Below are positions 29,179-64,000 of a stretch of 64,000 bases of DNA, one piece after another. Each line of letters opens with the position of its first letter. Position 1 is the first letter of the stretch. The notes beneath the pieces were generated by a model. That model worked only from the letters and a program-made list of their open reading frames with translations. It was not told the DNA's origin and ran no database searches. The translations under genes and the position numbers were made by a program. The DNA comes from Escherichia coli (GTDB lineage: Bacteria; Pseudomonadota; Gammaproteobacteria; Enterobacterales; Enterobacteriaceae): the NCBI RefSeq assembly GCF_046105845.1, contig NZ_CP151004.1; one strand, 5' to 3'.

Positions 29179-29241
29179 TGGGCGGTATTCTGAAACGGCG
29201 ATTGTCGTGAGAACAGAATGGTTGCACCAGAATACAGATAT

Positions 29242-38320: not shown

Positions 38321-38480
<160 letters not shown>

Positions 38481-38867: not shown

Positions 38868-39233
38868 TTAAATTTTCCTGCCTGGCGTAAACCTCTTAAA
38901 AATTGAGATTTATCAAAGAAACGCATTTTAGCACACATCAGGAACCGCTTCACGTTTAGTTCAGAAACAGAATTTATTTCGCTTATCAAAACAAGTCTTT
39001 ACTCTTTTTTACATTGAAAGAGCACAAAATGATTTTCTATTTTATTTATATAAGAAACATTTTTTGTTTCTTATTGGTGGTGTTTACGCTTACACCAGAC
39101 AAAAATGCGCTTTACATCACACAAATGGCGGCGTAGATTTCGATCAAATTGCAACGCAGATTAATTCTTATAACAACGTTTTACGTTGCTTATAGAAACA
39201 AATATGTGACTTACTTTGAAAGAGAAAAAATGC

Positions 39234-42836: not shown

Positions 42837-43244
42837 TCACCCCGCCCGATGATGACAGCAGCCGGAGAGATTTTCGATAATCGGGCAGTCGGCGCTGTCA
42901 TCGCCAGGGCAGGCATTCGCCAGCGCCAACAGCTGGTTGCGCATGGATTGCAGTTCTTCGATATGTCGCTCGATCTCCGCCACTTTCTCCAGGGTGCGAC
43001 GTTTGACGTCGGCACTGTGACGCTGCGGATCGTTAAACAGATTCACCAGCTCGCCGCTCTCTTCCAGGTTAAAGCCCACCTGGCGTGCCTGGCGCAGTAA
43101 GGTCAGTTCGTTGAGATGCTGCTGCGTGTAAGTACGATAACCGTTTTCGCTGCGCATCGGCGGCGTCACCAGCCCCTTCTCTTCATAGAAGCGGATTGCT
43201 TTGCTGGTCAGGCCGGTAATTTTTGCTACATCGCTAATGTTCAT
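42837..43244 (-). CDS. cueR: MerR-family copper-responsive regulator
   Basis: 135-aa [32 protein letters not shown]... with C-terminal metal-binding CPGDDSADC...CCHH; recognised CueR. Confidence 0.95.
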
Positions 43245-44416
43245 CGTTCGCGCAACGCCTCCTGTGCTTTATTAAAGGGTTTCAACAGATAATCCAGCAC
43301 GCTTTTTTTGCCGGTGCGGATATCGACCGTCGCCACCATGCCGGGAAATATCGGAAACTGCTGTTTACTTTTGTTTTCCAGATGGTTGCTGAAAGTGCGA
43401 ATGTACACCCGATAGTAATAAACATCGCGCCGCACTTCATCCTGCACGGTGTCTGGTGATATCACCGCCACTTCTCCCGGCAGGCCGCCGTAGATGGAGT
43501 AATCGTAGGCGGTTATTTTCACCAGCGATTTTTGCCCCGGATGGATAAACGCCACATCGCGCGGGGAGATTTTTGCCTCGATCAGCAGTTGCTCATCCAG
43601 CGGCACGATGGTCATCAGTTTACCACCGGGGGCAATGACCCCGCCAACCGTGGTGACGTCAATGTCCTGAACAATGCCTCGCACCGGCGCGGTAAAGTTG
43701 AGCCTGGTGAGGGAGTCTTCCCGTCCACGGATCACCGAACGCTGGGTTTCCACTTCCGCATTGGCTTTCGCTAACTCTTCGCGCGCCTGAACGTAATATT
43801 GCGTGCGCACGTCGCTAAGTTTGTTTTCCAGTTCATTGGCCTGGCGTTGCAGGCGCAGCACTTCAACGCTGCTCGCCGCCCCCTGTTTTACCAGCGGCTG
43901 GGTCATCGCCAGTTCGCGGTTGACCAGGCTAATCCCCTGCGTCAGCCCGGTGGTGGCTTTGTTCAGCCCATCGCGGCGAGTGTTGTACAACGCCGTTTCC
44001 GACTCGATAAGTTCGGGGAATTTATTCAGTTCGTCAGGGAAGACCAGCGGTTTATTGCTCACTTCCGCCCGCAGCCGCGCCGAGGTTGCCAGCGCCGCGT
44101 ACAGCCGCGACATTGCTTCCTGGACGTCGGATTCCGTTTTGGTGCGGTTAAGCTGCGCCAGCGGCTGGCCCTGTTCAACAATATCGCCAACCTTGACGTC
44201 GAGATGATACAGAATTCCGCCTTCCAGCGACTGCACCACCTGTTCGCGCCCGGAGGGTTCTACCGTGCCGCTGCCGGTGGTGACTTCATCAAGCTGGAAG
44301 TACCACGCCCAGCCGAGAAAACAGAGCAGCATCACAGCGGTAACGCGTACCGCCAGCGCCGAACGCGGCAAGCGGGGTTCAGTCAGGCCACGGTTGTATT
44401 GCAGTTGTCCGTTCAT
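43241..44416 (-). CDS. Type I secretion periplasmic adaptor (HlyD family membrane fusion protein)
   Basis: 391-aa ORF with N-terminal TM anchor, long coiled-coil region and C-terminal beta domain typical of HlyD/LapC; its stop overlaps the cueR start (ATGA). Confidence 0.88.
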
Positions 44417-46575: not shown

Positions 46576-46578
46576 TAT

Positions 46579-49500: not shown

Positions 49501-52500
49501 GGTCCACTGCGTGCCGTTGGTGGTGAGCGTGATCCAGGTCGCGCCACCATCGAGGCTAATCTGCGCCACTTCGCCACTGGCAAGCCCCGCCCCCAGTGAA
49601 CCCGTCAGCGTGAGCGTGGTATCGCTGGTGATAAAGTCAGTTGCCGAACTCCCCGTGTCGGTGCTGATACTGGCGATGGTGAGTACCTGCGCCGGGTTAA
49701 CGGTATCGATCAGCGCCGACTGGCTGCCGGTTGCGCCAACGTTGCCCGCAAGATCGACTACCCGCACCTGCCAGGTGGTGGTGCCGTTGGTGAGCGTGCG
49801 CCCGTCAACGTAACTCCAGTTAAGGCCGTCTGCGGCGACGGTCACGTTCACCCAGGTTGCGCCGTTGTCGGTACTGATTTGCGCGAACTCATTAGCGCCG
49901 AGCGCCGCGCCCAGCACGCCGCGCACGGTAAGCGAGGTGTCGCTGGTAATAAAATCGCTACTGCTGGCTCCGGTGTCATCGCTGATACCGGTAATGGTGA
50001 TACTTTTCGCCGCTTCCGGGCTGGTGGTGTCGACCACCACATTTTGCGTTGCGGTCTGCCCGACATTCCCCGCCAGATCCACCACCCGCACCGTGTAGTT
50101 CCAGGTGCCGTCGGTCAGTGTGCGACCATCGGCATAGCTCCAGCTGGTGCCGATAACGGTTAAGGTGGTCCAGGTAACACCGCCGTCGAGGCTGATTTGC
50201 GCCCGTTCATCGGCGGCAAGCGCCGCGCCGAGCGTGCCGCGCACGGTCAGCGTGGTGTCGCGGGTGACAAAATCGCTGCTGCTTAACCCGGTGTCATCGC
50301 TGATGCCCGCAATGGCGATGGTTTTGCTCGCCAGCGGCGCGGTGGTGTCCACAGTGACTATCTGGCTGGCGGTCGCGCCGATATTTCCGGCGGTGTCGAT
50401 CACCCGCACCTGATAGTTGTAGTTGCCGTCGCTCAGCGTGCGCCCGTCAAGATATGTCCAGGTTAAGCCGCTTACCGAAAGATTCTGCCAGGTGGTGCCG
50501 CCGTCGATGCTGATTTGCGCGAACTCACCGGCAGAAAGCGCCGCGCCCAGCGTGCCGCTTACCGCAAGCGTCGTGTCGCTGGTGACAAAATCGTTAGTGA
50601 TCAGGCCCGTATCGGTAGTGATCGCGCTGATGGCGATGGTTTTCACCGCGGGATCTGGCGCGATGGTGTCGATCACCACATTCTGGCTGTCGGTGGCACC
50701 GACGTTGCCCGCAGCGTCAATCACCCGCACCTGATAGAGATAGTTGCCATCGGTCAGCGTGCGGCTGTCGTTATAACGCCAGGTCGTGCCGGTAACGGTG
50801 AGCGTGGTCCAGGTTACGCCGCCGTCGATACTGATTTGTGCCGTCTCGTTACTGGCAAGCGCGGCGGTGAGCGAGCCGTTGACCACCACCGGACTGACGC
50901 TGGTGATAAAGTCGCTGGCGCTAAGCCCAGTGTCGGCTTGCAGGGAATCGATATTAATACCCATCGCCGGGACGCTGAGATCGACAGTAATGGTGTGATT
51001 GCTGCTGCCGGTGTTGCCAATGGCGTTGCTCACCGAGGCATTAATCACATAGGCATTGCCGTCCGTCAGCGCGGTGACATCGGCGCTGCCGAGGGTGTAG
51101 CTCCAGCTACCGCCGGTCTGTACCGTGGTGGTGTAGGTTTTGCCGTTTAAGGTCAGGGTCAGCGTCTGCCCGACGGGTGCGGTGGTGGTGCCGCTGATCA
51201 CCAGCGACGAGCCGTGTTCCGCCGCGTTCACCACATCATCGCCCGCAAAGGTGTTGATGGTGACGGTAGGCACATCGCCGTTCAACGTCACGCCACGGCT
51301 GGCGCTGCCGGGGTTTCCGGCCTGATCGGCGACCGACGCGCTGATGGTGTAGCTGCCGTCGCTTAATCCGGCAAACTGCTGCGCCGGAATAAACACCGAC
51401 CAGCTTCCGCCGCTGCCGACCGTTGCAGTCCAGCTCTGACCGTTAAAGGTGACGGTCACCGTCTGGCCCACTTCAGCGGTGGTGGTGCCGCTGATGGTTT
51501 GCCCAGCGAGCTGTTCGGCGTTGTTGATAATATCGTCACCCGCCACCGTGGCGATGGTGACCGTGGGCGCAACGGTATCGACGGTCAGGGCGTGCGTGGT
51601 TTGACCGGGGTTACCGGCGCGATCGTTCACGCTGGCGGTAATGGTCTGCGCGCCCTGCCCGAGTGCGGCCAGATCCGCCGCAGGCACGTTAAGCGCCCAG
51701 GTGCCATTGGCGGCCACCGTGGCAGTGTAAGTTTTGCCGCCAAAGGTGACAGTGACCGTCTGCCCCACTTCCGCGCTGGTCGAGCCGTTAAGGGTTAACG
51801 GCTGCTGTTGTTCGGCGGCGTTGAGTCGGTCGTCCGTTGAAACCGTGTTTATGCTGATAATCGGCGCGGTGAGATCCACCGCAACACTGCGCGAGGCCGT
51901 GGCGCTGTTTCCGGCGCTGTCCTGGGCGGAGGCGCTAACCGTGTAGCTGGTGCCATCCGCCAGTGCCGCGACGTCTGCCGCCGGCACGTTCACGCTCCAG
52001 CTCCCGTTGCTCTGAATGGTGGCGCTGTAGCCTTTGCCGTTAAGCAACACGGTCACTACTGTACCTGCGGCAAAGTTCGTTCCGGTGCCGATCAGGGTCA
52101 GCGCACTGCCCGCTTCGGCGGCGTTAATAATATTATCGCCGCTGATGGTGCTGACCGAGAGCGACACTGCCGCCGTGTTCACCTGCACGTTGTGCGTCTG
52201 CGTGCTGCTGTTGCCTGCGCTATCGGTGATAGTGGCGCTGATGGTCACCGTGCCGTCTGCAAGGCCGGAAATCACGCTGGCAGGCACGCCGACGCTCCAG
52301 TTGCCGCTGGCATCGGTGCTGGTGACATACTGCTGCCCGGCGATGGTCACCACCAGGCGGTCGCCCGCCACTGCGCCCGTGGCGGTGCCGCTGATAATCT
52401 GCGCCTGAGTGTGTTCGACGTTGTTAATCACATCATCGCCCGCCACGGTGTTAAAACTGATCACCGGCGCAGTGGTATCGACGGTCACGCCTTTGCTGGC

Positions 52501-55500
52501 GCTGCCAGGGTTACCCGCCAAATCGCTGACCGTGGCGGTCAGGGTGTAGCCGTTATTGGCAAGTGCGGTTAAGTCGCTGGCGGGCAGCGTTAAACTCCAG
52601 CTGCCGTCTGCCTGCACCGTGGTCTGGTAGTTAGTGCCGTTAAGCGTGACGGTCAGCGTCTGCCCCGTCTCCGCCGTGCTGGTGCCGGATACCGTCACGC
52701 CCGCCGCCGCTTCGCTGGCATTGATGATGTTATCGCTGGCAATGGTGTTGATGGTCACCGTTGGCGCGGCGCTATCGACGCTGTATTCATGCGTTGCCGT
52801 GGCGCTGTTGCCGTTGACGTTAGTCACCCGCACCTGGGCGCTGGCATCGCCGTCACGCAGGGCCGCCATATCCGCCGCCGGAACGGTGGTGCTCCAGCTA
52901 CCGTTTGCCGCCACCGTGGTGGTGTAGGTTTTACCGCCAAAAGTAATGGTAACGGTTTGCCCCGCTTCGACGCCGGACGTGCTGCCGGAGAGCGTTAGCG
53001 CCGCGCCTTTTTCGGCGGCGTTAATCACATCATCGCTGGTAATGCTGTTCATGCTGATGGCGACGGTAGTGAGATCAACAGTCAGCGGATGGGTAATGCT
53101 GGTTTGCGTTCCGGCACTGTTCGCGCCGCTAACGGTAATGTTCAGCGTTCCCGCAGGCCAGTTGCTGACATCCGCCGCCGGAACGCCGACGCTCCAGCTG
53201 CCGTTTGCCAGCACCGTGGCGGCGTAAGTTTGGTTATTAATCACCACCGTCAACGCCGTACCTGCGGCAAAACCGGAACTGCTGCCAGTAATCACCTGCG
53301 CCTGGGCGTGTTCGATAATATTCACCACATCATCGCCCGCGACGGTATCCACCCGCAGGCCGGGTAGACTGGCATCGATGGTGATATCGCGCGTGCCGCT
53401 ACCGGTGTTGCCAACGGCGTTGGTCACCAAGGCATTAACCGTTAACTCACCGTTACCCAGCGCCTGCCAGTCGGCGGCAGGTACGCTCACATTCCAACTT
53501 AAATCAGCCTGGACCGTGGCGGTGTAAGTTTTACCGCCCAGTTCAACGGTGACGGTGCTGCCCGCCGCCGCACCGGTTACCTGGCCGCTGATGGTTTGCG
53601 CACTGCCTGCTTCAGCGGCGTTGATAATATCGTCCGTCGCCACCGGATTAATGGTGACGCCCGGTAGCGCGGTATTGACCTGCACGTTATGGCTGGCGGT
53701 GCTGCTGTTACCCTGAGCATTTGTGACGCTCGCCGTCACGCTGTAGGTGGCTTCGCCCAGCGCACTGACCGCCGAGGCGGGCACGGTTACGCTCCAGTTG
53801 CCGGAGGCGTCGGTAGTGGCGCTGTAGTTTTGTCCGTTCAGCGTAACGGTGATCGCCGTACCCGCAGGCTGATCGCTGGTGCCGGAAAGCGTCAGATCAG
53901 ATCCTTTTTCCGTCGCGTTGATCACATCATCGCCCGCGATGGTGTTGATGCTAATCACTGGCGCGCTGAGGCTGACGGTCACGGTGCGGCTGGCGTCATC
54001 GCTGTTACCCGCCCGATCGCTGACGCTGGCGGTGATGGTCTGTGCGCCGCTACCCAGTGCCGTAACATCCGCCGCTGGAACGCCAACGCTCCAGTTGCCG
54101 GAGGCATCCAGGGTGGTGGTGTAGGTTTTGCCGTTGAGCACAACGCTCACCACATCGCCCGCTTCCCCGCCCGTGCTGGTGCCGGAGATCACCAGCGCCT
54201 GCGCATGTTCGGCATCGTTGATAATGTCATCGCCCGCCACAGTGTTAATGGTGAGAACCGGCGCGGTGGTGTCTACCGCCAGATTATGGCTGGCGCTGCC
54301 GGGGTTGCCCGCTTTGTCGTTGACCGTGGCGCTGACGGTGTAATTGCTTGCGCTCAGCGCGCCTAAGGCTGAAGGGGGAACGCTGACGCTCCAGCTACCG
54401 TCTGCCTGCACATTACCGCTGTAGGTTGCGCCGTTAAGGGTGACGGTGACCGTCTGCCCGGTTTCGGCGGTGCTGGTGCCGCTGATGGTGAGCGGGCTTC
54501 CCGCCTCCGTGGCGTTAAGAATATCGTCGCTGGCAATGGTGTTAATGGTGAGCGTCGGCGCGCTGGCGTCAACGCTGTACGCATGGGTCGCCGAGGCGCT
54601 GTTACCGCTCGCGCTGCTAACGCTGGCCTGCACGTTCGCCGCGCCGTCTGGCAGAGTTGCCAGATCTGCCGCCGGAACGTTCACACTCCAGCTTCCGTTG
54701 GCGGCGACGCTTGCGGTGTAGGTTTTACCGCCAAAGATGACGGTAACGGTTTGCCCGCTTTCAATCCCGCTGGTGCTGCCGGAAAGGGTCAGACCAGTGC
54801 CTTTTTCGGCGGCGTTAATTACGTCGTCGCTGGCAACGGTGTTGATGCTGATTGCCACCGCCGTTAAATCGACGGTGAACGGATGGCTGACGCTGACCGG
54901 ATTTCCGGCGCTGCTCTGGCCTGCCACGTCAACGGTTAACGCCCCCGCAGGCCATGCGCTGACGTTTGTCGCCGGAATGCCGACGCTCCAGCTCCCGTCT
55001 GCCTGTACCGTGGCGGAATAAGCCGTGCCGTTAATCGTGATCGTCAATGGCACGCCTGCATTCAGGCCGCTACTGCCGCCAGTGATCACCAGCGCCTGCC
55101 CGTGTTCAATGCTGTTGACGATATCATCGCCCGCTACCGTATCCACGCGCAGCCCTGGCAGGTTAGCGTCAATGGTGATATCCCGCGTACCGCTGCCCGT
55201 ATTGCCATTCGCGTTGGTGACCGAAGCGTTAATGGTCAAATCGCCATTGCCCAACGCCTGGAGATCGGCTGCCGGAACGCTGATACTCCAGCTTAAGTTG
55301 CCCTGTACCGTGGTGGTGTAAGTGTTGCCGCCCAGCGTGACGGTAACCGTATCGCCAGCGGCGGCACGAGTGACCACCCCGCTGATGGTTTGATCGGCCC
55401 CGGCTTCGGCGGCGTTGATAATATCATCGCCCGCCACGGTGTTGATGGTAACGCCCGGCAGGCCGCTATCGATCAGTAAATTCGCCTGGCTGCTGGCGGT

Positions 55501-58500
55501 GTTACCCGCCGCACTGGTGGCACTGGCGCTGACGGTATAGTTGGCCTGACCTAGAGCCGCCAGATCGCTCACCGGCACGGTTAAGGTCCAGTTGCCCGCC
55601 GCGTCGGTGGTGGCGCTGTAGTTATGACCGTTGAGCGTGACGGTGACCTGCGCGCCCGTCGCCAGCCCCGTACTGCTACCGCTAATGGTCAACGGCTGGC
55701 CTTTTTCATCGGCGTTCAGGACGTTATCGCCGCTGATGGCGTTAAAGGTAATTGACGGCAGGCCAGTATTGACCGTCACCTGATGCGTGGCGCTGCCGCT
55801 GTTTCCGGCGGCATCGGTGACGCTGGCGTTAATGGTCACCGTGCCGTTCGCCAGCGCCGAGACGACGCTTGCCGGAACGCCGACGCTCCAGTTACCGCTG
55901 GCATCCAGCACGGTGGTGAAGGTATTTGTGCCGATAGTCACCGTCACGGTGCTACCGGTTGCCGCACCCGTGGCGGAGCCGCTGATAATCTGCGCCTGGG
56001 CGTGTTCCGTCGCGTTGATCACATCATCGCCTGCCACCGTGTTGATGGTGACGACCGGAACGGAAGTATCCACCGTCAGGTTGTGATTAACCGAGGCCGG
56101 GTTTCCGGCTTTGTCGCTCACCGCCGCATTCACGGTGTAGTTGCTGGCGGTCAGGGCGCTTAAGTCGGCTGGCGGTACGCTGACGCTCCAGCTACCGTCC
56201 GTTTGAACCGTGCCAGTATAGTTTTCGCCATTGAGGGTGACGGTCACTGTCTGCCCCGCTTCCGCCGTGCTGCTGCCAGTGATAGTCAGCGCAGCACCCG
56301 CTTCGGCGGCGTTAAGAATGTCGTCGCCCGCAATGGTGTTAATGGTCACCGTTGGCGCGGTAGCATCGACGCTGTAAGCGTGGGTAGTGGTGGCGCTGTT
56401 GCCGTTAACATTGCTGACGTTGGCCTGCGCGCTGGCATCGCCATCACGCAGGGCCGCCATATCTGCCGCCGGAACCGAGGTGCTCCAGGAACCATTCGCC
56501 GCGACGCTTGCAGTGTAGGTTTTGCCGCCAAAGGTGACGGTGACCGTTTGCCCGGCCTCCACACCAGAAGTGCTGCCAGAGAGCGTTAACGCCGCGCCTT
56601 TTTCGGCAGCGTTAATCACGTCATCGGCAGTAATGGCGTTGATGCTGACCGCCACCGCAGTGAGATCGACAGTCACCGGATGCGTAACGCTGACCGGATT
56701 TCCGGCTGTGGTGCTACCGCTCGCCGTAATCGTGACCGTCCCCGCAGGCCAGGCGCTGACATCTGCCGCCGGAACGCCGACGCTCCATGAGCCATCCGCC
56801 AGTACCGCCGCAACATAGGTTTGCCCGTTAATGGTCAGCGTGACGTTACTGCCCGTCGCCAGACCGGAACTGCTGCCGGTAATCATCAGCGCCTGTCCGT
56901 GCTCGATAATATTGACCACATCATCGCCAGCGACAGTATCGACCCGCAGACCGGGCAGATTCGCGTCGATGGTGATTTCACGCGTGCCGTTACCGGTATT
57001 ACCTACGCTGTTCGTTACCGAAGCCGAAATGGTCAGCTCGCCGTTGCCCAGCGCCTGTAAAGCGGCTGCCGGAACATTAATACTCCAGCTTAAATTCGCC
57101 TGCACCGTGGCAGTGTAAGTCGCCCCGCCGAGCGTGACGGTTACCGTGTCGCCCGCTGCCGCGCCCGTCACTTGCCCGCTGATGCTCTGGCCCGCGCCCG
57201 CTTCGGCAGCGTTAATAATATCGTCGCTCGCGACAACGTTAATGGTGACGCCCGGCAGCGCGGTATTAACCTGCACGTTATGGCTGGCGGAACCGCTGTT
57301 GCCATCAGAGTCAGTAGCGGCGGCGGTCACCGTGTAAGTGGCTTCACCGAGGGCGCTCACCCGTGACGCCGGAACGGTCACGCTCCAGTTACCGGATGCA
57401 TCGGCAGTGGTGGTGTAATTTTGCCCGTTGAGCGTAACGGTTATCTGCGTGCCCGCAGGCTGGTCGCTGGTGCCGGAAATCGCCAGATCCGCGCCTTTCT
57501 CCGTGGCGTTGATGATGTCATCGACGGCAATGGTGTTAATGCTAAGTACCGGAGCGCCGAGCGCCACGCTGACACTGTGCGAGGCCGTGCCGCTGTTGCC
57601 TGCGGAGTCGGTGACCGTGGCGGTAATGGTCACATCCCCCTGCGCCAGTGCGGAAATCACGCTGGCAGGCACACCGATGCTCCAGTTGCCGTTGGCGTCC
57701 AGCACGGTGGTATAGGTAGTCGTGCCAATGGTCACGGAAACCGTGTTACCGGTCGTCGCGCCCGTTGCCGAGCCGCTGATAATCTGCGCCTGAGCATGTT
57801 CCGTGGCGTTGATGATGTCATCGCCCGCCACCGTGTTAATGGTGACAACCGGAGCGGCAAGGTCCACCGTCAGATTATGTGTTGCTGAAGCCGGATTTCC
57901 GGCTTTGTCGCTGACCGCCGCGCTCACCGTATAGGGACTGACAGTGAGGTTGGCTAAATCGCCAGTTGGTACGCTGACGCTCCAGTTCCCGTCTGCCTGC
58001 ACGTTGCCGCTGTAATTGACGCCGTTTAGCGTCACAGTCACCGTCTGCCCGGCTTCCGCCGTGGTGGTGCCGCTGATGGTCAGCGCCGATCCCGCTTCGG
58101 CGGCGTTAAGAATATCGTCGCTGGCGATGGTGTTGATGGTAACGGATGGCGCGGTGGCATCGACGCTGTAAGCATGCGTTGCCTGGGCGCTGTTACCTGC
58201 GACGTTGCTGACGCTGGCCTGGACGTTTGCTGCGCCGTCAGGCAAGGTTGCGAGATCGGCGACTGGGATCGTTAGCCCCCAGGTGCCGCCCGCGGCAACC
58301 GTGGTGGTGTAGCTTTTACCACCGAAGATAACGGTGATGGTCTGCCCCGCTTCCACGCCGGAGGTGGTGCCGGAAAGCTGCAAATCGCTGCCTTTTTCGG
58401 CGGCATTAATTACATCGTCAGTGGAAAGGGTGTTGATGGTGATCGCCACAGTAGCGAGATCGACCGTGACCGGATGAGTAATGCTGGTTGTGGTTCCGGC

Positions 58501-61500
58501 AGTATTCGTGCCAGAGACGGCAATATTGACCGTCCCCGCAGGCCAGTTTGTGACGTCTGTCGCCGGAACGCCGACGCTCCAGGTGCCATCGGCGAGTACC
58601 GTTGCGCCATAGGCGACGCCGTTGATAACTACCGTCAACGCCGCCCCCGCCGCCAGTCCGGTACTGCTACCGGTGACCACCAGTGCCTGAACGTGCTCAA
58701 TGCTGTTAATCACATCATCGCCTGCCACGGTATCGACGCGCAGACCAGGTAGGTTGGCGTCTATTACGATGTCGTGCGTTGCGGTGCCAGTATTATTTGC
58801 GGAATTGGTCACCGAGGCGCTGATGGTCAGTTCACCGTTGCCCAGCGCCTGCAAAACGTTCGCAGGTACGCTGACGCTCCAGCTTAAATCTGACTGCACG
58901 GTGGCGGTGTATTGATTGCCGCCAATGATGACAATAACCGTATTCCCCGCAATCGCCGTCCCCGTGACCTGACCGCTGATGGTCTGCGCCACAGCGATTT
59001 CAGCCGCGTTGATAATGTCATCGCCCGCCACGGTATTAATGATTACCCCTGGCAGGAGCGATTCGACATTCACCGTATGGGTGGTGCTGCCGCTGTTGCC
59101 CGCGCTGTCGGTGGCGCTGGCGCTAATCTGATACACCGCCTCGCCCAGTGCGCCGACCGCCGAAGCAGGCACGGTAACGCTCCAGTTACCGGAACCGTCG
59201 GTGGTGGCACTGTACGCCAGGCCGTTCAACATCACGGTGACCGTGGTGCCGATCGCCAGACCGCTGGAGCCGCCGCTGATGGTCAGATCCTGAGTTTTCT
59301 CGGTATTGTTAATAATGTCATCGCCAGAGACAGTATTGATGGTCAGCGTTGGGCCGCTGAGATCAACGGTCACATCGTGAGTCGTGCTGTCGCTGTTGCC
59401 CGCGCGATCGCTCAGGCTGGCGGTGATGGTCTGGCTACCGGTTGCCAGCGCCGTGACATCCGCCGCCGGAATACCGACGCTCCAGTTACCGGAGGCATCC
59501 AGCGTGGTGGTGTAGTTTTTGCCGTTGAGCGAGACGGTCACCACATCGCCTGCCGCCGCGCCCGTGCTGGTGCCGCTCACCACCAGCGCCTGCCCGTGTT
59601 CGATAGCGTTGATGATGTCATCGCCCGCGACGGTGTTAATGGTGAGATCCGGCGCGGTAACGTCCACCGCCAGCGCGTGGTCGGCGCTTGCCGGGTTACC
59701 CGCTTTGTCGCTTACCGTGGCGGTCACGGTATAGCTGCTGGCGATTAATCCGCTTAAATCCGTTGCCGGAACGTTCACGCTCCAGGTGCCATTCGCCTGA
59801 ACGGTGGTCTGGTAAGTGTTGTTATTGAGCGTGACGGTCAGCGTCTGCCCGGCCTGCGCCGTGGTGGTGCCGCTGATGGTGATCCCCGCGCCCGCTTCGC
59901 TCACGTTGAGAATATCGTCACTGGCGATGGTGTTGATGGTCACAAGCGGCGCAGTGGCATCGACGCTGTACGCGCGATCGGCCTGGGCGTTATTGCCGTT
60001 AATGTTGCTGACGTTCGCCTGCACGTTGCCCGCGCCATCCGGCAGCGCAGCGAGATCGGCAGGCGGTACGTTCACCGTCCAGCTACCGTTGGCTTCCACA
60101 GTAGTGGTGTAATTTTTGCCACCAAAGGTGACGGTCACCGTCTGCCCGGCTTCCACGCCGCTGGTGCTGCCGCTTACGACCAGCGTTTCGCCTTTCTCCA
60201 CGGCGTTGATCACATCATCGCCGGACAGGGTGTTAATGGTGATGGCGACCGCCGTCAGATCGACAGTGACCGGATGGGTAATGGTGGAGGTTGTTCCGGC
60301 GCTGTTGGTGCCGCTTACCGTAATATCCACCGTACCCGCAGGCCAGTTGCTGACGTCTGCCGCCGGAATACCGAGGCTCCACGTGCCGTCGGCTAACACC
60401 GTCGCGGCGTAAGTGACGTTGTTGATCACAACCGTTAACGCGGTTCCTGCCGTCAGTCCGCTGCTGCTCCCGGTGATCACCAGCGCCTGATTGTGCTCAA
60501 TGCTGTTAATAACATCATCGCCCGCCACGGTATCGACCCGCAGTCCAGGCAGATTGGCGTCGATCGTGATATCGCGCGAGCCGCTGCCCGTGTTGCCAAC
60601 GCCATTGGTGACCGAGGTGTTAACTGTCAGGTTGCCGTTACCCAGCGCCTGAATATCCGCCGCCGGAACGCTGACACTCCAGCTTAAATTGGCCTGCACT
60701 GTGGCGGTGTAGGTGTTGCCGCCCAGCGTAACGGTAACCGTATCCCCCTGCGCTGCGCCCGTCACCTGCCCGCTGATAGTCTGGGCATTTCCCGACTCGG
60801 CATCGTTAATAATATCGTCGGTCGCCACCGCGTTAATAGTGACGGCAGGCAGCGCGCTGTTGACCAGCACGTTATGGCTGGCGGAATTGCTGTTGCCTGC
60901 GCTATCGGTGACGTTCGCGGTTACCGTGTAGTTGGCTTCCCCCAGCGCGCTAACCGCCGAGGCTGGCACCGTGGCGCTCCAGTTGCCGTTGCTATCGGTC
61001 GTCGCGGTGTAATTTTGCCCGTTCAACGTCACCGTAATGGTGGTGCCCGCAGGCTGATTACTGGTGCCGGTAATTTGCAGATCCGCGCCTTTTTCCGTGG
61101 CGTTAATCACGTCATCGCTGGCGATAGTGTTGATGCCAATGGTTGGCGCGGTCAGATTCACGGTGACCGTGCGGCTGGCATCATCGCTGTTGCCTGCCGC
61201 GTCGGTAATGGTAGCTGTGATGGTTTGCGGGCCGCTGCCCAGCGCGGTGACATCTGACAGCGGAACGCCGACGCTCCAGTTGCCGGAAGCATCCAGCGTG
61301 GTGGTGTAGGTTTTACTGTTTAGCGTGACGGTGATGACATCACCCGCTTCGCCGCCAGTGCTGGAACCGGAGATCACCAGCGCCTGTCCGTGTTCGGCGG
61401 CGTTAATAATGTCATCGCCGGAGATGGTGTTGATGGTCAGCACCGGCACGGTGAGATCCACCGCCAGCCCGTGAGTGGTGGTCGCAGGGTTACCCGCTTT

Positions 61501-64000
61501 ATCGCTTACCGAGGCGCTGACCGTGTACTGACTGGCGGTCAGATTGCTGAGATCCGCCGTCGGCACGCTGACGCTCCAGCTCCCGTCCGCCAGGACGGTG
61601 CCGGTGTAAGTCACGCCATTAAGCGTGACAGTTACCGTCTGCCCCGCTTCGGCGGTGCTACTGCCGCTGATGGTTAGCGGATTGCCCGCCTCGGCGGCGT
61701 TCAGAATATCGTCGGTGGCGATGGTGTTAATGGCAAGCGTCGGTGCCGTGGCGTCGACGCTGTAGGCGTGCGTTGCCGAAGCCGTGTTGCCGTTAATAGT
61801 GCTGACGCTGGCCTGTACCGTGGCGTCGCCGTCGCGTAACGCGCTGAGATTGGCGGCAGGTACGGTGGTTGTCCAGCTACCATCGCCCGCTACGGTAGCG
61901 GTGTAGGTTTTCCCGCCAAAGGTAACGGTGACCGTTTGCCCCACTTCCACGCCGGAGGTGCTGCCTGAAAGGGTTAAATCTGCACTTTTTTCAGCGGCAT
62001 TAATCACATCGTCGCCGGAAACGGTGTTAATGGAGATCGCCACAGCTGCCAGATCGACGGTGACTGGATGGGTGATGGTGACCGGGTTTCCTGCGCTAGT
62101 AGCACCTGAAACCGTGATATTCACCGTACCCGCAGGCCAGTTGCCCACATCTGCCGCCGGAACACCAACGCTCCATGTGCCATCGGCTAATACTGTCGCA
62201 GCGTAAGTGACCGTGTTAATCACCACCGTCAGCGCCGCGCCCGCCGCCAGCCCGCTGCTGCTACCAGTTATCACCAGTGCCTGACTGTGCTCGATGCTGT
62301 TGACCACATCATCGCCCGCCACGGTATCGACGCGCAGGCCAGGCAAATTAGCGTCGATAGTAATATCTCGCGAACCGCTGCCGGTATTACCAACGCCGTT
62401 GGTCACCGAGGCATTAACTGTCAGGTCGCCATTGCCGATGGCCTGAATATCCGCCGCCGGAACGCCCACGCTCCAGCTTAAATTGCCCTGCACGGTAGTG
62501 GTGTAGGTTTTCCCGCCAAGCGTTACGGTAACCGTATCGCCCGCCGCCGCGCCCGTCACCTGCCCGCTGATGGTCTGCGCCACGCCCGATTCGGCGGCGT
62601 TAATAATGTCGTCGCTCGCCACCGGATTAAGGGTGACGCCAGGCAGTGCGGTATTCACCTGCACGTTATGGCTGGCGGAATTACTGTTACCCGCGCTGTC
62701 GGTGACATTCGCCGTCACCGTATAACTGGCTTCGCCCAGCGCACTGACGGCGGAGGCTGGCACCGTGGTGCTCCAGTTGCCTGCGGCGTCCGTCGTGGCA
62801 GTGTAATTTTGCCCGTTCAGCGTCAGCGTAATTGTGGTGCCAGCTGGCTGATTACTGGTGCCGGAAATTTGCAGATCCGCGCCTTTTTCGATGGCGTTAA
62901 TCACGTCATCGGTGGCGATGGTGTTAATGCCAATGGTCGGCGCGGTCAGATTCACTGTAACCGTGCGGCTGGCATCATCGCTATTGCCTGCCGCGTCGGT
63001 AATGCTGGCGGTGACAGTTTGCGGGCCGCTGCCCAGCGCCGTGACATCCGCCGCCGGAACGCCGACGCTCCAGTTGCCGGAGGCATCCAGCGTCGTGGTG
63101 TAGGTTTTACTGTTTAGCGTGACGGTGACGACATCCCCCGCTTCTCCGCCAGTGCTGGAACCGGAAATCACCAGCGCCTGCCCGTGTTCGGCGGCGTTAA
63201 TAATATCGTCGCCCGCAATGGTGTTGATGGTGAGTACCGGAACGGTGAGATCCACCGCCAGATTATGCGTGGTGCTCGCCGGGTTGCCTGCTTTGTCATT
63301 GACCGTGGCGGTCAGGGTGTGGCTGCCATCGGTCAATGCCTCAAGATCTGCCGCCGGAATATTAATACTCCAGCTACCGTCGGCCTGTACCGTTGCCTGA
63401 TACGTCTGCACGGTCGGGCTATTGAGCGTTATCGTAACAATCTGCCCTGCCTCGGCAGTGGTGCTGCCGCTCACCGTCACACCCGCATCGGCTTCGCTGG
63501 CGTTGACGATATTGTCGCTGGCAACGGTATTGATAATGATGGTCGGGACACTGCTGTCGACGCTGTAGTTATGCACCGCCGAGGCGCTATTGCCGTTAAT
63601 ATTGCTGACGCTGGCCTGCGCGGAGGCGCTGCCCTCTGGTAATGCTGCCAGATCGGCGGCGGGAACGGTGGCAGCCCAGCTACCATCGCTCGCCACGCTG
63701 GCAGTGTAATTTTTCCCGCCAAAGGTGACGGTGACGGTTTGACCGGATTCTACGTTAGTGGTGGTGCCGGAAAGGGTTAAATCAGCGCCTTTTTCTGTGG
63801 CGTTAATCACATCATCCGTGGCGATGGTGTTGATGGTGATCGCCGCCGGAGTGAGATCGACCATAACCGGATGCGTAATGCTCACCGGATTTTCGGCGCT
63901 ACTTTCCCCGGACACGGTAACCGTTACTGTTCCCGCAGGCCAGGCGCTAACCTGCGCCGCCGTGACGCCCACGCTCCAGCTACCATCGGCCTGCACCGCA
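46579..64000 (-). CDS. Giant RTX-type non-fimbrial adhesin, T1SS substrate; partial (N-terminus beyond window end)
   Basis: Open minus-strand frame from the window edge to TAG at 46579..46581 (at least 5805 aa in window); the leading M in the ORF track is an edge artefact. Dozens of ~100-aa Ig-like domains, a second repeat class, FG-GAP/VCBS-like motifs, RTX nonapeptides and a C-terminal secretion region; stop is 3 bp from the ABC transporter start. Confidence 0.9.
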   Translation of the reverse strand, partial: AVQADGSWSVGVTAAQVSAWPAGTVTVTVSGESSAENPVSITHPVMVDLTPAAITINTIATDDVINATEKGADLTLSGTTTNVESGQTVTVTFGGKNYTASVASDGSWAATVPAADLAALPEGSASAQASVSNINGNSASAVHNYSVDSSVPTIIINTVASDNIVNASEADAGVTVSGSTTAEAGQIVTITLNSPTVQTYQATVQADGSWSINIPAADLEALTDGSHTLTATVNDKAGNPASTTHNLAVDLTVPVLTINTIAGDDIINAAEHGQALVISGSSTGGEAGDVVTVTLNSKTYTTTLDASGNWSVGVPAADVTALGSGPQTVTASITDAAGNSDDASRTVTVNLTAPTIGINTIATDDVINAIEKGADLQISGTSNQPAGTTITLTLNGQNYTATTDAAGNWSTTVPASAVSALGEASYTVTANVTDSAGNSNSASHNVQVNTALPGVTLNPVASDDIINAAESGVAQTISGQVTGAAAGDTVTVTLGGKTYTTTVQGNLSWSVGVPAADIQAIGNGDLTVNASVTNGVGNTGSGSRDITIDANLPGLRVDTVAGDDVVNSIEHSQALVITGSSSGLAAGAALTVVINTVTYAATVLADGTWSVGVPAADVGNWPAGTVNITVSGATSAGNPVTITHPVTVDLAAVAISINTVSGDDVINAAEKSADLTLSGSTSGVEVGQTVTVTFGGKTYTATVAGDGSWTTTVPAANLSALRDGDATVQASVSTINGNTASATHAYSVDATAPTLAINTIATDDILNAAEAGNPLTISGSSTAEAGQTVTVTLNGVTYTGTVLADGSWSVSVPTADLSNLTASQYTVSASVSDKAGNPATTTHGLAVDLTVPVLTINTISGDDIINAAEHGQALVISGSSTGGEAGDVITVTLNSKTYTTTLDASGNWSVGVPLSDVTALGSGPQTITATITDAAGNSDDASRTVTVNLTAPTIGINTIASDDVINATEKGADLQITGTSNQPAGTTITVTLNGQNYTATTDSNGNWSATVPASAVSALGEANYTVTANVTDSAGNSNSASHNVLVNSALPAVTINAVATDDIINDAESGNAQTISGQVTGAAQGDTVTVTLGGNTYTATVQANLSWSVSVPAADIQALGNGNLTVNTSVTNGVGNTGSGSRDITIDANLPGLRVDTVAGDDVINSIEHNQALVITGSSSGLTAGTALTVVINNVTYAATVLADGTWSLGIPAADVSNWPAGTVDITVSGTNSAGTTSTITHPVTVDLTAVAITINTLSGDDVINAVEKGETLVVSGSTSGVEAGQTVTVTFGGKNYTTTVEANGSWTVNVPPADLAALPDGAGNVQANVSNINGNNAQADRAYSVDATAPLVTINTIASDDILNVSEAGAGITISGTTTAQAGQTLTVTLNNNTYQTTVQANGTWSVNVPATDLSGLIASSYTVTATVSDKAGNPASADHALAVDVTAPDLTINTVAGDDIINAIEHGQALVVSGTSTGAAAGDVVTVSLNGKNYTTTLDASGNWSVGIPAADVTALATGSQTITASLSDRAGNSDSTTHDVTVDLSGPTLTINTVSGDDIINNTEKTQDLTISGGSSGLAIGTTVTVMLNGLAYSATTDGSGNWSVTVPASAVGALGEAVYQISASATDSAGNSGSTTHTVNVESLLPGVIINTVAGDDIINAAEIAVAQTISGQVTGTAIAGNTVIVIIGGNQYTATVQSDLSWSVSVPANVLQALGNGELTISASVTNSANNTGTATHDIVIDANLPGLRVDTVAGDDVINSIEHVQALVVTGSSTGLAAGAALTVVINGVAYGATVLADGTWSVGVPATDVTNWPAGTVNIAVSGTNTAGTTTSITHPVTVDLATVAITINTLSTDDVINAAEKGSDLQLSGTTSGVEAGQTITVIFGGKSYTTTVAAGGTWGLTIPVADLATLPDGAANVQASVSNVAGNSAQATHAYSVDATAPSVTINTIASDDILNAAEAGSALTISGTTTAEAGQTVTVTLNGVNYSGNVQADGNWSVSVPTGDLANLTVSPYTVSAAVSDKAGNPASATHNLTVDLAAPVVTINTVAGDDIINATEHAQAQIISGSATGATTGNTVSVTIGTTTYTTVLDANGNWSIGVPASVISALAQGDVTITATVTDSAGNSGTASHSVSVALGAPVLSINTIAVDDIINATEKGADLAISGTSDQPAGTQITVTLNGQNYTTTADASGNWSVTVPASRVSALGEATYTVTAAATDSDGNSGSASHNVQVNTALPGVTINVVASDDIINAAEAGAGQSISGQVTGAAAGDTVTVTLGGATYTATVQANLSWSINVPAAALQALGNGELTISASVTNSVGNTGNGTREITIDANLPGLRVDTVAGDDVVNIIEHGQALMITGSSSGLATGSNVTLTINGQTYVAAVLADGSWSVGVPAADVSAWPAGTVTITASGSTTAGNPVSVTHPVTVDLTAVAVSINAITADDVINAAEKGAALTLSGSTSGVEAGQTVTVTFGGKTYTASVAANGSWSTSVPAADMAALRDGDASAQANVSNVNGNSATTTHAYSVDATAPTVTINTIAGDDILNAAEAGAALTITGSSTAEAGQTVTVTLNGENYTGTVQTDGSWSVSVPPADLSALTASNYTVNAAVSDKAGNPASVNHNLTVDTSVPVVTINTVAGDDVINATEHAQAQIISGSATGAATGSTVTVTIGTNTFTTVLDASGNWSVGVPASVVSALANGTVTINASVTDAAGNSGSATHQVTVNTGLPSITFNAISGDNVLNADEKGQPLTISGSSTGLATGAQVTVTLNGHNYSATTDAAGNWTLTVPVSDLAALGQANYTVSASATSAAGNTASSQANLLIDSGLPGVTINTVAGDDIINAAEAGADQTISGVVTRAAAGDTVTVTLGGNTYTTTVQGNLSWSISVPAADLQALGNGDLTINASVTNANGNTGSGTRDITIDANLPGLRVDTVAGDDIVNSIEHGQALVITGGSSGLNAGVPLTITINGTAYSATVQADGSWSVGIPATNVSAWPAGALTVDVAGQSSAGNPVSVSHPFTVDLTAVAISINTVASDDVINAAEKGTGLTLSGSTSGIESGQTVTVIFGGKTYTASVAANGSWSVNVPAADLATLPDGAANVQASVSSASGNSASATHAYSVDASAPTLTINTIASDDILNATEAGSPLTISGTSTAETGQTVTVTLNGATYSGNVQADGSWSVSVPPSALGALSASNYTVSATVNDKAGNPGSASHNLAVDTTAPVLTINTVAGDDIINDAEHAQALVISGTSTGGEAGDVVSVVLNGKTYTTTLDASGNWSVGVPAADVTALGSGAQTITASVSDRAGNSDDASRTVTVSLSAPVISINTIAGDDVINATEKGSDLTLSGTSDQPAGTAITVTLNGQNYSATTDASGNWSVTVPASAVSALGEATYSVTASVTNAQGNSSTASHNVQVNTALPGVTINPVATDDIINAAEAGSAQTISGQVTGAAAGSTVTVELGGKTYTATVQADLSWNVSVPAADWQALGNGELTVNALVTNAVGNTGSGTRDITIDASLPGLRVDTVAGDDVVNIIEHAQAQVITGSSSGFAAGTALTVVINNQTYAATVLANGSWSVGVPAADVSNWPAGTLNITVSGANSAGTQTSITHPLTVDLTTVAISMNSITSDDVINAAEKGAALTLSGSTSGVEAGQTVTITFGGKTYTTTVAANGSWSTTVPAADMAALRDGDASAQVRVTNVNGNSATATHEYSVDSAAPTVTINTIASDNIINASEAAAGVTVSGTSTAETGQTLTVTLNGTNYQTTVQADGSWSLTLPASDLTALANNGYTLTATVSDLAGNPGSASKGVTVDTTAPVISFNTVAGDDVINNVEHTQAQIISGTATGAVAGDRLVVTIAGQQYVTSTDASGNWSVGVPASVISGLADGTVTISATITDSAGNSSTQTHNVQVNTAAVSLSVSTISGDNIINAAEAGSALTLIGTGTNFAAGTVVTVLLNGKGYSATIQSNGSWSVNVPAADVAALADGTSYTVSASAQDSAGNSATASRSVAVDLTAPIISINTVSTDDRLNAAEQQQPLTLNGSTSAEVGQTVTVTFGGKTYTATVAANGTWALNVPAADLAALGQGAQTITASVNDRAGNPGQTTHALTVDTVAPTVTIATVAGDDIINNAEQLAGQTISGTTTAEVGQTVTVTFNGQSWTATVGSGGSWSVFIPAQQFAGLSDGSYTISASVADQAGNPGSASRGVTLNGDVPTVTINTFAGDDVVNAAEHGSSLVISGTTTAPVGQTLTLTLNGKTYTTTVQTGGSWSYTLGSADVTALTDGNAYVINASVSNAIGNTGSSNHTITVDLSVPAMGINIDSLQADTGLSASDFITSVSPVVVNGSLTAALASNETAQISIDGGVTWTTLTVTGTTWRYNDSRTLTDGNYLYQVRVIDAAGNVGATDSQNVVIDTIAPDPAVKTIAISAITTDTGLITNDFVTSDTTLAVSGTLGAALSAGEFAQISIDGGTTWQNLSVSGLTWTYLDGRTLSDGNYNYQVRVIDTAGNIGATASQIVTVDTTAPLASKTIAIAGISDDTGLSSSDFVTRDTTLTVRGTLGAALAADERAQISLDGGVTWTTLTVIGTSWSYADGRTLTDGTWNYTVRVVDLAGNVGQTATQNVVVDTTSPEAAKSITITGISDDTGASSSDFITSDTSLTVRGVLGAALGANEFAQISTDNGATWVNVTVAADGLNWSYVDGRTLTNGTTTWQVRVVDLAGNVGATGSQSALIDTVNPAQVLTIASISTDTGSSATDFITSDTTLTLTGSLGAGLASGEVAQISLDGGATWITLTTNGTQWTYTDSRTLTDGSYVYQVRVLDLAGNTGPVVSKTVVVDTINPTATPTIVSYTDDVGQRQGTLSSSQATDDTTPLLNGVLSGPLASGEVVYLYRNGLLLGAVTMVGALNWTYSDSGLVSGAYTYSARVVDLAGNITASSDFVLTVDTSIPTTLAQITSQTTRDTTPIISGVITAALASGQYVEVVINGKTYTSEPGGAVVVDPAHNTWYVQLPDTDALTVSATAYTVTAQVKSSAGNGNNANISNGTVTVNAAIDYTPTWTTVSKTTAWGLTYGLDSHGMWTVLANQQVMQSTDPLTWSKTALTLYQSGNNYATSSIADYDRNGTGDLFITRDDYGTGYINGFTNNGDGTFSSAIQVTVGTLTWYGSIVAFDKEGDGYLDFWIGDAGGPDSNTFLWNNAGTLVGTSTTSNSGGSATVGGAVTGYLSLNEGSGVDLNNDGRIDLVQHTYNLNNYYTLSSLINQGNGTFVWGQNTTNTFLSGAGSGAMSSSVSMTWADFDGDGDMDLFLPASQGRANYGSLLFNTNGVLGSPVAVGATATTYASQFSLAVDWNHDGLMDIARIAQTGQSYLYTNVSNASNWTQSALGGSQSGTTSGVAAMDYDWDGAVDVLVTKQSGSVYLIRNTNTVSYGTSLHLRITDPNGINVYYGNTVKLYNSAGVLVATQIINPQSGMGVNDTSALVNFYGLNAGETYNAVLIKSTGTTASNIDQTVNTSWGGLQATDATHAYDLSAEAGTASNNGKFVGTGYNDTFFATAGTDTYDGSGGWVYSSGTGTWLANGGMDVVDFRLSTVGVTANLSSTAAQATGFNTSTFTNIEGISGSNFNDTLTGSSGDNQLEGRGGNDTLNIGNGGHDTLLYKLLNASDATGGNGSDVVNGFTVGTWEGTADTDRIDIRELLQGSGYTGNGKASYVNGVATLDAQAGNIGDFVKVTQSGSDTIVQIDRDGTGGTFATTNVVTLTGVHTDLATLLANHQLMVV
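46582..47040 (-). other. RTX nonapeptide motifs and C-terminal type I secretion signal region of the adhesin
   Basis: LEGRGGNDTLNIGNGGHDTL (GGxGxD repeats) about 140 aa from the C-terminus, confirmed by reverse-complementing 46961..47020; the final ~60 aa lack Cys. Confidence 0.65.
47400..48750 (-). other. FG-GAP/VCBS-like calcium-binding repeat region of the adhesin (coordinates approximate)
   Basis: Motifs DYDRNGTGDLFI, DKEGDGYLDFWI, DLNNDGRIDLV, DFDGDGDMDLFL, DWNHDGLMDIA, DYDWDGAVDVLV. Confidence 0.5.
48750..50960 (-). repeat. Second class of ~105-aa repeats (about 7 copies) in the adhesin (coordinates approximate)
   Basis: Repeating units with motifs ...I(S/T)xDTGxSxxDF(I/V)TxDTxLT(V/L)xGxLGAxL...ISxDGGxTW...DGRTLTDG...VRV(I/V)DxAGN.... 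Confidence 0.6.
50960..64000 (-). repeat. Array of ~100-aa bacterial Ig-like domains arranged in ~6-domain (~1.8 kb) super-repeats (coordinates approximate)
   Basis: Motifs such as (I/V)NT(I/V)AxDD(I/V)(I/L)NAxE recur about every 99-100 aa; the block IDANLPGLRVDTVAGDD recurs at least 6 times at ~600-aa spacing; antisense ORFs recur with ~300-bp and 1794-bp periodicity (e.g. 61064 vs 62858). Confidence 0.8.

Follow-up and report, generated by a model that had tools for sequence, protein, structure and literature searches.

In MpIBP of Marinomonas primoryensis about 120 RII repeats are essentially identical at the DNA level and present a true assembly and recombination problem. The alpha C protein of group B Streptococcus and the staphylococcal proteins Bap, SasG, and Aap are encoded by near-identical arrays that frequently change copy number, and titin contains super-repeats with 7- and 11-domain patterns of Ig/Fn3 domains. 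SiiE of Salmonella is described as a chain of 53 BIg domains that have Ca2+ sites (PMC5466336). O-island 28 (OI-28) of Escherichia coli O157:H7 carries a T1SS/RTX adhesin system (tolC28, rtxA28/Z0609, rtxB28/Z0615, hlyB28, and hlyD28) in which the adhesin is treated as two RTX proteins; the system is needed for EHEC adherence and its Ig-like repeats are experimentally required (PMC12758282). The gene siiEA is mentioned by name in PMC3256949. The analysis below concerns a tandemly repeated gene in a window of 64,000 nucleotides of E. coli DNA (the whole stretch that was analyzed, from contig NZ_CP151004.1).

Gene identity and domain architecture

The repeats are part of a single long open frame that is adjoined in the window by the ABC and HlyD adaptor genes of a T1SS:
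43241–44416, minus strand: HlyD-family T1SS periplasmic adaptor (TIGR01843, 327.7 bits, cut-off 208.65)
44413–46575, minus strand: T1SS ABC permease/ATPase of the LssB type (TIGR03375, 837.5 bits, cut-off 693.1)
46579–64000, minus strand: C-terminal part of siiEA, 5,805 codons plus stop (single open frame 46579–63996)
46591–47055, minus strand: RTX nonapeptide repeat and T1SS C-terminal secretion target domain (PF00353, E 2e-4; TIGR03661, 36.9 bits, cut-off 17.6)
47680–48555, minus strand: FG-GAP-like repeats close to the C-terminus, probably forming a beta-propeller module (three Pfam FG-GAP_3 matches, E 3e-9 to 3e-7)
49423–50936, minus strand: second repeat type, Ig-like, about 106 aa or 318 nt (TRF period 318, 3.1 copies, 72% matches; repeat family D20; Pfam Big_13)
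50974–64000, minus strand: 43.5 tandem Ig-like extender domains of 99–102 aa each, stabilised by Ca2+ (domain table)

The stretch at 46579–64000 encodes the C-terminal part of SiiEA, a giant adhesin of E. coli O-island 28 that is secreted by a type I system and related to BapA. The open frame overruns the window end, leaving about 3,356 nt at the 5' end of the gene beyond it, and the visible part is 95.3% identical to the intact 20,778-nt siiEA of PK8261 (locus L006) over 17,422 nt with 0 gaps. In RefSeq, the features beneath the window matches carry the gene name siiEA and have TolC, ABC, HlyD, and cueR as neighbors, with flanks that are shared with the window locus; the TolC-family gene is located 5' of siiEA in loci L001 and L006, which places it outside the window. 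The model for the adhesin itself (NF047714, adhesin_SiiEA) describes the N-terminal region, which the window lacks, and was matched by the colinear L006 allele with 510.6 bits (cut-off 425); the BapA prefix-like domain (NF033677) was found on the N-terminus of the same allele with 72.4 bits (cut-off 35). Purifying selection acts on the sense frame (allelic dN/dS 0.10, allelic dS 0.165), and an Rfam scan gave no match within the gene. A siiEA pseudogene is present in five of the nine RefSeq loci examined. For the pseudogene of AST215 a sequencing error was excluded, as its frameshift stems from one 23-nt deletion between 8-nt direct repeats and not from scattered homopolymer indels. Overall, the locus is an ordinary and already known one that encodes an annotated and recently studied adhesin.

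The extender domains match the NCBIfam model Ca_tandemer (NF033510, 541.7 bits, six stretches per 598 aa or one super-repeat), Pfam Big_13, and the MpAFP RII tetra-tandemer (PDB 4P99, E 9.7e-61). Their number was taken from the full domain table with a looser motif, since a simple count of motif spacings missed a few domains. SiiEA combines this long tandem array of Ig-like Ca2+-binding domains with an RTX repeat and a T1SS secretion target at its C-terminus. By homology to MpIBP RII the Ca2+-rigidified domains probably form a stalk, and the O157:H7 study suggests a role of SiiEA in adhesion. The preliminary description, made from the same DNA, had proposed an adhesin gene with super-repeats from position 50960 onward; the identity of siiEA and its domain array bear this out, and the start is sound, with the end of the final Ig-like domain at 50974.

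A diverged six-domain super-repeat

Most of the extender array is organized at a higher level, and its most similar parts are a pair of four-domain stretches:
52171–64000, minus strand: zone of six-domain super-repeats with units of 1794–1803 nt (repeat families D5–D17, unit identity matrix, domain table)
60317–61467, minus strand: first copy of the paralogous stretch with the highest similarity, domains 9–12 (86.4% identical to 62111–63261)
62111–63261, minus strand: second copy of this stretch, domains 3–6 (self-BLAST)

In one register, the unit boundaries are located at 52707, 54501, 56298, 58092, 59892, 61686, and 63489, which corresponds to successive spacings of 1794, 1797, 1794, 1800, 1794, and 1803 nt. 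Domains six positions apart share 71% amino acid identity compared with 45% at other lags. The periodicity of about 1.8 kb noted earlier is strong and extends from about 52.2 kb to the window end, but the repeats of 50960–64000 are not the long near-identical copies they were taken for: whole units are 68–80% identical at the DNA level, the best stretch reaches 86.4%, and the array lacks copies that are near-identical over hundreds of bases. The longest exact direct match in the array is 34 nt, and a k-mer check of 50960–64000 found no 35-mer that is present twice. Between pairs of units dS is 0.71–1.24 and dN/dS is 0.12–0.27; silent sites are near saturation and the duplications are old. With an identity of only 68–86% and no long exact stretches, the array is poorly suited as a substrate of homologous recombination.

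The most similar pair is recovered by self-BLAST as an ungapped match of 1,151 nt (86.4%, 1045 bits), far above chance. The four-domain patch has a dS of 0.54, and its top domain pair (domains 3 and 9) is 90.7% identical at the nucleotide level with a dS of 0.32. Two plus-strand frames lie opposite this pair of stretches:
60874–61257, plus strand: antisense shadow ORF of 127 aa, opposite the 5,805-codon sense frame and not a gene
62668–63117, plus strand: another antisense shadow ORF, of 149 aa, at a distance of 1794 nt (70% amino acid identity to the first over 128 aa)

Ongoing gene conversion between adjacent super-repeats (concerted evolution) could maintain the patch, given that four consecutive domains are 81–91% identical at the nucleotide level compared with about 71–76% at the other two positions of the same units. 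This is very unlikely, however. A comparison of six alleles found no case of paralogues from the same genome being closer to each other than orthologues: paralogues are as similar within alleles (82.9–86.1%) as between alleles (83.1–86.1%) whereas orthologues are 89–99% identical, and the dS of the patch is about threefold the allelic value (0.165). These identities and dS values place the event that formed the patch before the divergence of the alleles and indicate that it did not recur. As the patch shows, some partial duplication or conversion took place after the main duplications. Gene conversion as the origin of the patch had been considered and was dismissed on the matrix of orthologue and paralogue identities. 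There is next to no probability that the plus-strand ORFs are genuine antisense genes and that their conservation accounts for the repeat. They are open for 127–149 codons and resemble each other, but they are less conserved than the sense-frame domains they overlap (70% vs 86–94% amino acid identity), and family, structure, and orthologue support as well as the dN/dS of 0.10 all belong to the sense frame. Furthermore, siiEA is tiled by 16 plus-strand ORFs with a length of 100 aa or more, which are shadows of a coding strand that is GC-rich and repetitive. The preliminary description placed these ORFs 1794 bp apart, which is exact, and reported about 90% amino acid identity, which is too high: the alignment gives 70% over 128 aa, and a count along it by hand about 80% from 61064 on. 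The higher figure fits the sense frame instead, where domains 3 and 9 share 94% and domains 4 and 10 share 89.9% of their amino acids. The DNA identity across the ORF pair is 87.5% (80–94% in 100-nt windows).

Length variants and the origin of the array

About 959 genomes carry the gene. Array length was surveyed in a ranked spread of 60 out of 959 genomes together with five junction- or segment-specific counts, so that more variants may occur, and breakpoints were mapped by stringent BLAST orthologous blocks. A single common length was found in 29 of the 34 sampled full-length loci, despite an allele divergence of 4–6% or more. In-register copy-number polymorphism does occur among complete E. 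coli genomes, and four deletions were mapped onto the window:
about 49914–50256, minus strand: 318-nt deletion, a singleton in strain LR-28 (in the 318-nt repeat region, outside the interval 50960–64000)
56735–63952, minus strand: interval absent from GF131, 7,191 nt or four super-repeats, in-frame (17-nt exact homology at the junction)
58104–59943, minus strand: 1,800-nt in-frame deletion of one super-repeat, strain 47258 type (86 genomes with the junction at at least 99% identity)
59009–59325, minus strand: 300-nt deletion of one domain, roughly domain 16, in O157:H7-type alleles (junction at at least 99% in 337 genomes)

Other genomes match the junction of the 300-nt deletion as two pieces spanning 701 nt. 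The crossover of the 1,800-nt deletion is located in a conserved 'INTIASDDILN' motif according to a three-way junction alignment, with a 20-nt exact homology in the window (58121–58140 and 59921–59940), and all 60 carriers listed are 100% identical across the junction. The GF131 junction was found at at least 99% identity only in GF131 itself. Outside the interval 50960–64000, an allele with about 900 additional nt is present in 27 genomes. The O157:H7-type alleles also carry a separate deletion of about 319 nt, one 318-nt repeat further along the gene than the LR-28 deletion. The four mapped junctions have exact homologies of 12–20 nt inside conserved motifs and none falls within the 1.15-kb pair of highest similarity. 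Deletion in the short alleles is a better reading of the length differences than recent duplication in the long ones, because the extra units of the long alleles are at most 74–80% identical to any other unit; the polarity is argued from this divergence and not from a rooted phylogeny. Overall, array length varies between lineages only occasionally and at a low rate, and it is a stable lineage marker and not a fast switch.

Very probably, the whole pattern is that of old, diverged, six-domain super-repeats of the SiiEA stalk with rare in-register deletions. The stalk would be a chain of Ca2+-binding Ig-like domains of about 100 aa, and the DNA repeats are the coding footprint of those domains. 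An ancestral block of six distinct domains was very probably duplicated in tandem several times, long ago, giving the 1.8-kb super-repeat; the silent sites of the copies have since diverged close to saturation, with the protein fold preserved by purifying selection. Changes in length do occur, as rare in-register deletions with crossovers in short conserved motif islands (12–20 nt exact), probably by short-homology unequal exchange or replication slippage, a mechanism suggested by the junctions, and most deletion alleles afterwards persist across whole lineages. A selected design, rather than historical accident, is a rather doubtful explanation of the six-domain super-repeat. If it were correct, neighbors at no more than 56% identity and scrambled silent sites would protect a 20-kb gene from inter-domain misfolding and recombinational collapse, and the few in-frame deletions that become fixed would adjust how far the adhesin reaches to suit the surface of a lineage, e.g., the thickness of its O-antigen or capsule, with the loss of one domain (337 O157:H7-type genomes) and of six domains (86 genomes) as examples.

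The preliminary description had instead regarded the super-repeats as near-identical copies that are a substrate for recombination and a risk to assembly. On this reading they would form an active hot spot of homologous recombination and make the assembly of siiEA unreliable. The periodicity is real, one pair of stretches reaches 86–94% locally, and copy number differs in register among E. coli genomes, where one domain, one unit, or four units have been lost in-frame; in-frame change of copy number between strains stands to that extent, but near-identical copies as its cause do not. The hot-spot reading is largely refuted by the identity figures given above (units at 68–80%, a longest exact match of 34 nt, no repeated 35-mer) and is improbable on other grounds as well: dS between units is about 1, none of the four mapped junctions (0/4) uses the most similar pair but 12–20-nt homologies instead, the three larger variant classes are each common to many genomes (337, 86, and 27), and the comparison of copy number across related genomes, while it did reveal in-register variants, gave one length for 29 of the 34 sampled full-length loci. 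That the array in the window is itself an assembly artefact, with collapsed or mis-joined units, is extremely unlikely. Repetitive genes carry a general risk of this kind and pseudogenes are annotated in the five RefSeq loci mentioned above, but the frame is intact through 5,805 codons, every k-mer of at least 35 nt is unique, the alignment to the independent complete genome of PK8261 is gap-free over 17,422 nt, copy number is the same as in AST215, and the locus has the length common to 29 of the 34 loci. The array can be trusted in assemblies and in read mapping because it lacks exact repeats of 35 nt or more. Old, diverged super-repeats with rare deletions remain the preferred explanation.

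A truly near-identical repeat is present nearby in a YadA-like gene (369 nt, 4.9 copies, 98% identity) and differs by one copy from the closest genome. Within the window, the concern about repeat collapse is better directed at this 369-nt array. Variation of repeat number is expected in such adhesin genes, and little rides on the case of siiEA.

Comparison with known systems

Titin resembles the SiiEA array in its periodic block duplication, which in siiEA leaves neighboring domains about 45% identical and domains at the same position about 71% identical; this is an architectural analogy only, without homology or common function. As in SiiEA, in-frame gain or loss of whole units makes the alpha C, Bap, SasG, and Aap proteins differ in length from strain to strain. 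The siiEA repeats, however, are old and have diverged, and most of the variant alleles each occur in a whole group of genomes (337, 86, and 27) instead of being scattered. The siiEA domains match region II of MpIBP (PDB 4P99) and by homology would be Ca2+-rigidified beads of a long stalk, whereas their copies are 68–86% identical and of six distinct types.

BapA and SiiE of Salmonella enterica are similar in their BapA prefix-like N-terminus (seen in L006), tandem Ig-like domains, C-terminal T1SS signal, and dedicated T1SS, but siiEA is a different gene at a different locus. The orthologous system is OI-28 of O157:H7, which shares with the window the cueR-ybaT locus, the order TolC-adhesin-ABC-HlyD, and an allele of about 94–96% identity. 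The O157:H7-type allele differs from that of the window by the absence of one 300-nt domain and one 318-nt repeat. It is marked as frameshifted with an internal stop in RefSeq, whereas the window allele is open throughout its visible part. The "two RTX proteins" of O157:H7 are parts of a single giant gene that is orthologous.

The siiEA locus and its secretion genes

The interval 50960-64000, for which the preliminary description had claimed long, near-identical repeats at a spacing of ~1.8 kb, is contained within a single giant gene:

46579..63996, minus strand: siiEA open reading frame, 5,805 codons, open past the window end

The window is part of an E. coli chromosome, and complete genomes of this species align with a 7.9-kb query (43000-50900) at up to 99.3% identity. 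The features under the matches are named "siiEA: BapA-related adhesin SiiEA", T1SS permease/ATPase, HlyD family T1SS periplasmic adaptor subunit and cueR. The gene order in the closest genome, AST215, is ybaT, a TolC-family gene, siiEA, ABC, HlyD and cueR. Both the ABC gene (TIGR03375, 837.5 bits, cut-off 693.1) and the adaptor gene (TIGR01843, 327.7 bits, cut-off 208.65) score above the model cut-offs, and the SiiEA C-terminus contains FG-GAP-like repeats, an RTX nonapeptide match and a T1SS C-terminal target domain (TIGR03661, 36.9 bits, cut-off 17.6). Judged from these matches, the 3' neighbor genes and the protein end are consistent with type I secretion. The N-terminus lies beyond the window, and the colinear intact PK8261 allele passes both the adhesin_SiiEA model (NF047714, 510.6 bits, cut-off 425) and a BapA prefix-like domain model.

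The locus is O-island 28 (OI-28) of O157:H7. A 2025 study (PMC12758282) reports that OI-28 encodes a T1SS and an RTX adhesin required for adherence at an early stage, with the Ig-like repeats of the adhesin being indispensable. The island is located between cueR and ybaT and is carried by 959 of 5,426 complete E. coli genomes. In one genome, GDSC2227PM, all that is left between the TolC and ABC genes is a remnant of ~2 kb that includes a BapA prefix-like fragment. The GC content of siiEA (60-62%) is well above that of most of the remaining window (42-58%). Four Rfam models matched the window above their gathering scores, none of them within siiEA:

16252-16318, minus strand: STnc480
29240-29328, minus strand: AgrB, next to dinQ in the AST215 annotation
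29811-29853, plus strand: ES036 (CssrF)
38370-38447, plus strand: naRNA4 (CssrE)

Five of the nine RefSeq loci fetched carry a pseudogene annotation for siiEA. The lesion in AST215 is the loss of 23 nt between direct repeats of 8 nt (CAGCGGGC) at a site corresponding to window 57151-57189, that in MEW is a 107-nt out-of-frame deletion, and RefSeq labels siiEA of the O157:H7 strain Z903 as "frameshifted; internal stop". Z0609 and Z0615 of O157:H7 are taken as two RTX proteins in the OI-28 paper (PMC12758282); the RefSeq records and the alignment made here show them as one orthologous giant gene.

Architecture, identity and age of the repeats

The ~1.8-kb periodicity was confirmed, with repeat families at 1794, 1797, 1800 and 1803 nt spacing from ~52.2 kb to the window end. 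The window contains 43.5 Ig-like domains of 99-102 aa each, and the array ends at 50974, in agreement with the start at 50960 proposed earlier. At the protein level, domains six positions apart (lag 6) share 71% identity and those at lag 12 share 70%, compared with 44-46% at all other lags, which defines a six-domain unit (super-repeat). Each unit contains six NCBIfam Ca_tandemer stretches (541.7 bits), is also matched by Pfam Big_13, and aligns with PDB 4P99 (E 9.7e-61), the Ca2+-rigidified RII extender domains from the Marinomonas ice-binding adhesin. Homology to MpIBP RII, SiiE and BapA suggests that the array forms a Ca2+-stiffened stalk that keeps the C-terminal FG-GAP-like and RTX region distant from the cell after export by the adjacent T1SS, a model drawn from the domain matches and the O157:H7 experiments (PMC12758282). 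Adjacent domains are ~45% identical, and the six-domain pattern has possibly been selected against misfolding or recombination between domains. Domains 16 (59056-59355) and 28 (55462-55761) are outliers at one common super-repeat position, with a best identity to any other domain of at most 61% and 54%, respectively. A second repeat type lies just below the array:

49423-50936: 318-nt (106-aa) repeats, ~72% identical, Big_13-like

The degree of identity, by contrast with the periodicity, had been overstated. Whole units share 68-80% DNA identity, and the best stretch (60317-61467, domains 9-12, against 62111-63261, domains 3-6) reaches 86.4% over 1,151 ungapped bases, with 100-nt windows at 90-94% only from ~61000 to 61400. 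Exact direct matches in 50900-64000 are at most 34 nt long, and no 35-mer is present twice in 50960-64000. The antisense ORFs reported as ~90% identical (60874-61257 and 62668-63117) are 70% identical over 128 aa and, from 61064 onward, ~80% by manual count of the alignment; the ~90% figure fits the sense-frame domain pairs 4/10 (89.9%) and 3/9 (94%). Both are shadow ORFs that are conserved less than the sense frame; siiEA contains 16 plus-strand ORFs of at least 100 aa.

Synonymous divergence between units is near saturation (pS 0.46-0.61, dS 0.71-1.24, dN/dS 0.12-0.27), with dS of 0.54 for the most similar four-domain patch and 0.32 for the best single domain pair. Since these values exceed the dS of 0.165 (dN/dS 0.10) between the window and PK8261 alleles, the duplications are long older than the divergence of present E. 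coli alleles, and the remaining DNA similarity is largely a leftover of purifying selection on the protein. Comparison of the two patch copies across six alleles gave no sign of ongoing gene conversion between them: copies are 82.9-86.1% identical within and 83.1-86.1% between alleles, and orthologous copies 89-99%. The allelic divergence of siiEA from PK8261 is itself high for E. coli, in the array and the C-terminal part alike. The gene is also mosaic: window 60317-61500 is 98.9% identical to PCN033 and the neighboring paralogous segment only 94.8% (95.9% to PK8261), which suggests allelic recombination between strains.

Length variation and assembly

The preliminary description had proposed comparing copy number across isolates, and in-frame length variation between strains was indeed found by stringent orthologous block mapping against PK8261 (window coordinate = 67357 minus PK8261 coding coordinate).

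Length variants of siiEA, in window coordinates, with exact junction homology and number of genomes
Strain 47258 type: -1,800 nt (one super-repeat); ~58104-58143 / 59904-59943, at the conserved "INTIASDDILN" motif; 20 nt in the window; 86 genomes, each with at least 99% identity to a 401-nt junction query
GF131: -7,191 nt (four super-repeats); ~56735-63952; 17 nt; 1 genome
O157:H7 type: -300 nt (one domain, roughly domain 16); ~59009-59325; 14 nt; 337 genomes
O157:H7 type: about -319 nt; in the 318-nt repeats below 50.9 kb
LR-28: -318 nt; ~49914-50256, in the 318-nt repeats; 12 nt; 1 genome
PCN033 / AST85: about +900 nt (three more domains); near the N-terminus, beyond the window; 27 genomes

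The -300-nt junction query gave a two-piece match spanning 701 nt in other genomes, confirming the extra domain there. The 318-nt repeat is also variable in copy number, with one unit missing at different sites in LR-28 and O157:H7-type alleles. The LR-28 change and all those within the Ig-like array are divisible by three in length. No other stretch of the gene exceeds 74% identity to the extra domains of the long alleles, which are therefore not recent duplicates; because the units of the standard allele have also all diverged from one another, the shorter alleles are most simply explained as deletions.

The variation had been attributed to a near-identical recombination substrate, and this part of the interpretation failed. 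The 86% patch is not used by any of the four mapped junctions, all of which lie in short motif islands common to every domain, with 12-20 nt of exact homology, and long identical repeats do not drive a hot spot here. The overall pattern is that of infrequent in-register events at short homology; the commoner ones are now present in many genomes, and the events may proceed by RecA-dependent unequal exchange at minimal homology or by replication slippage.

The suspected assembly hazard was likewise not substantiated. The window array aligns with the independently assembled, intact 20,778-nt PK8261 gene with 0 gaps over 17,422 nt (95.3% identity), the copy number is equal in the AST215 alignment, and every k-mer of at least 35 nt is unique. 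Of 60 genomes taken as a ranked spread from the 959 carriers, 34 cover the entire TolC-to-ABC query and 29 of these share one span of 22,801-22,824 nt. On these alignments there appears to be no reason to suspect collapse or mis-joining of the array.

Near-identical repeats in the window and in other adhesins

The most useful by-product of the analysis is a genuinely near-identical tandem repeat ~10 kb from the siiEA repeats:

39216-42125, plus strand: YadA-like autotransporter adhesin ORF, 969 aa
39531-41352: tandem array within this ORF, 369 nt x 4.9 copies, 98% matches, no indels

The copies differ from one another at 1-9 nt, and the window contains one copy more than AST215, with flanks that are 99.3% identical. 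Within the window, it is this array that poses the real recombination and assembly risk. The AST215 CDS annotation covers only the last 349 aa of the gene, and MEW carries a divergent YadA-like allele without a matching array.

The siiEA array is an ordinary property of a gene already annotated and studied. MpIBP carries ~120 identical RII repeats, and the class of identical-repeat proteins also includes the Gram-positive alpha C, Bap and SasG proteins. The window siiEA is not a member of this class: neither near-identity nor concerted evolution was found, and only copy-number polymorphism is common to both. Instead, with all testable defining features present, it belongs to the SiiEA/OI-28 adhesin family within the T1SS Ca2+-stabilized repeat adhesins.
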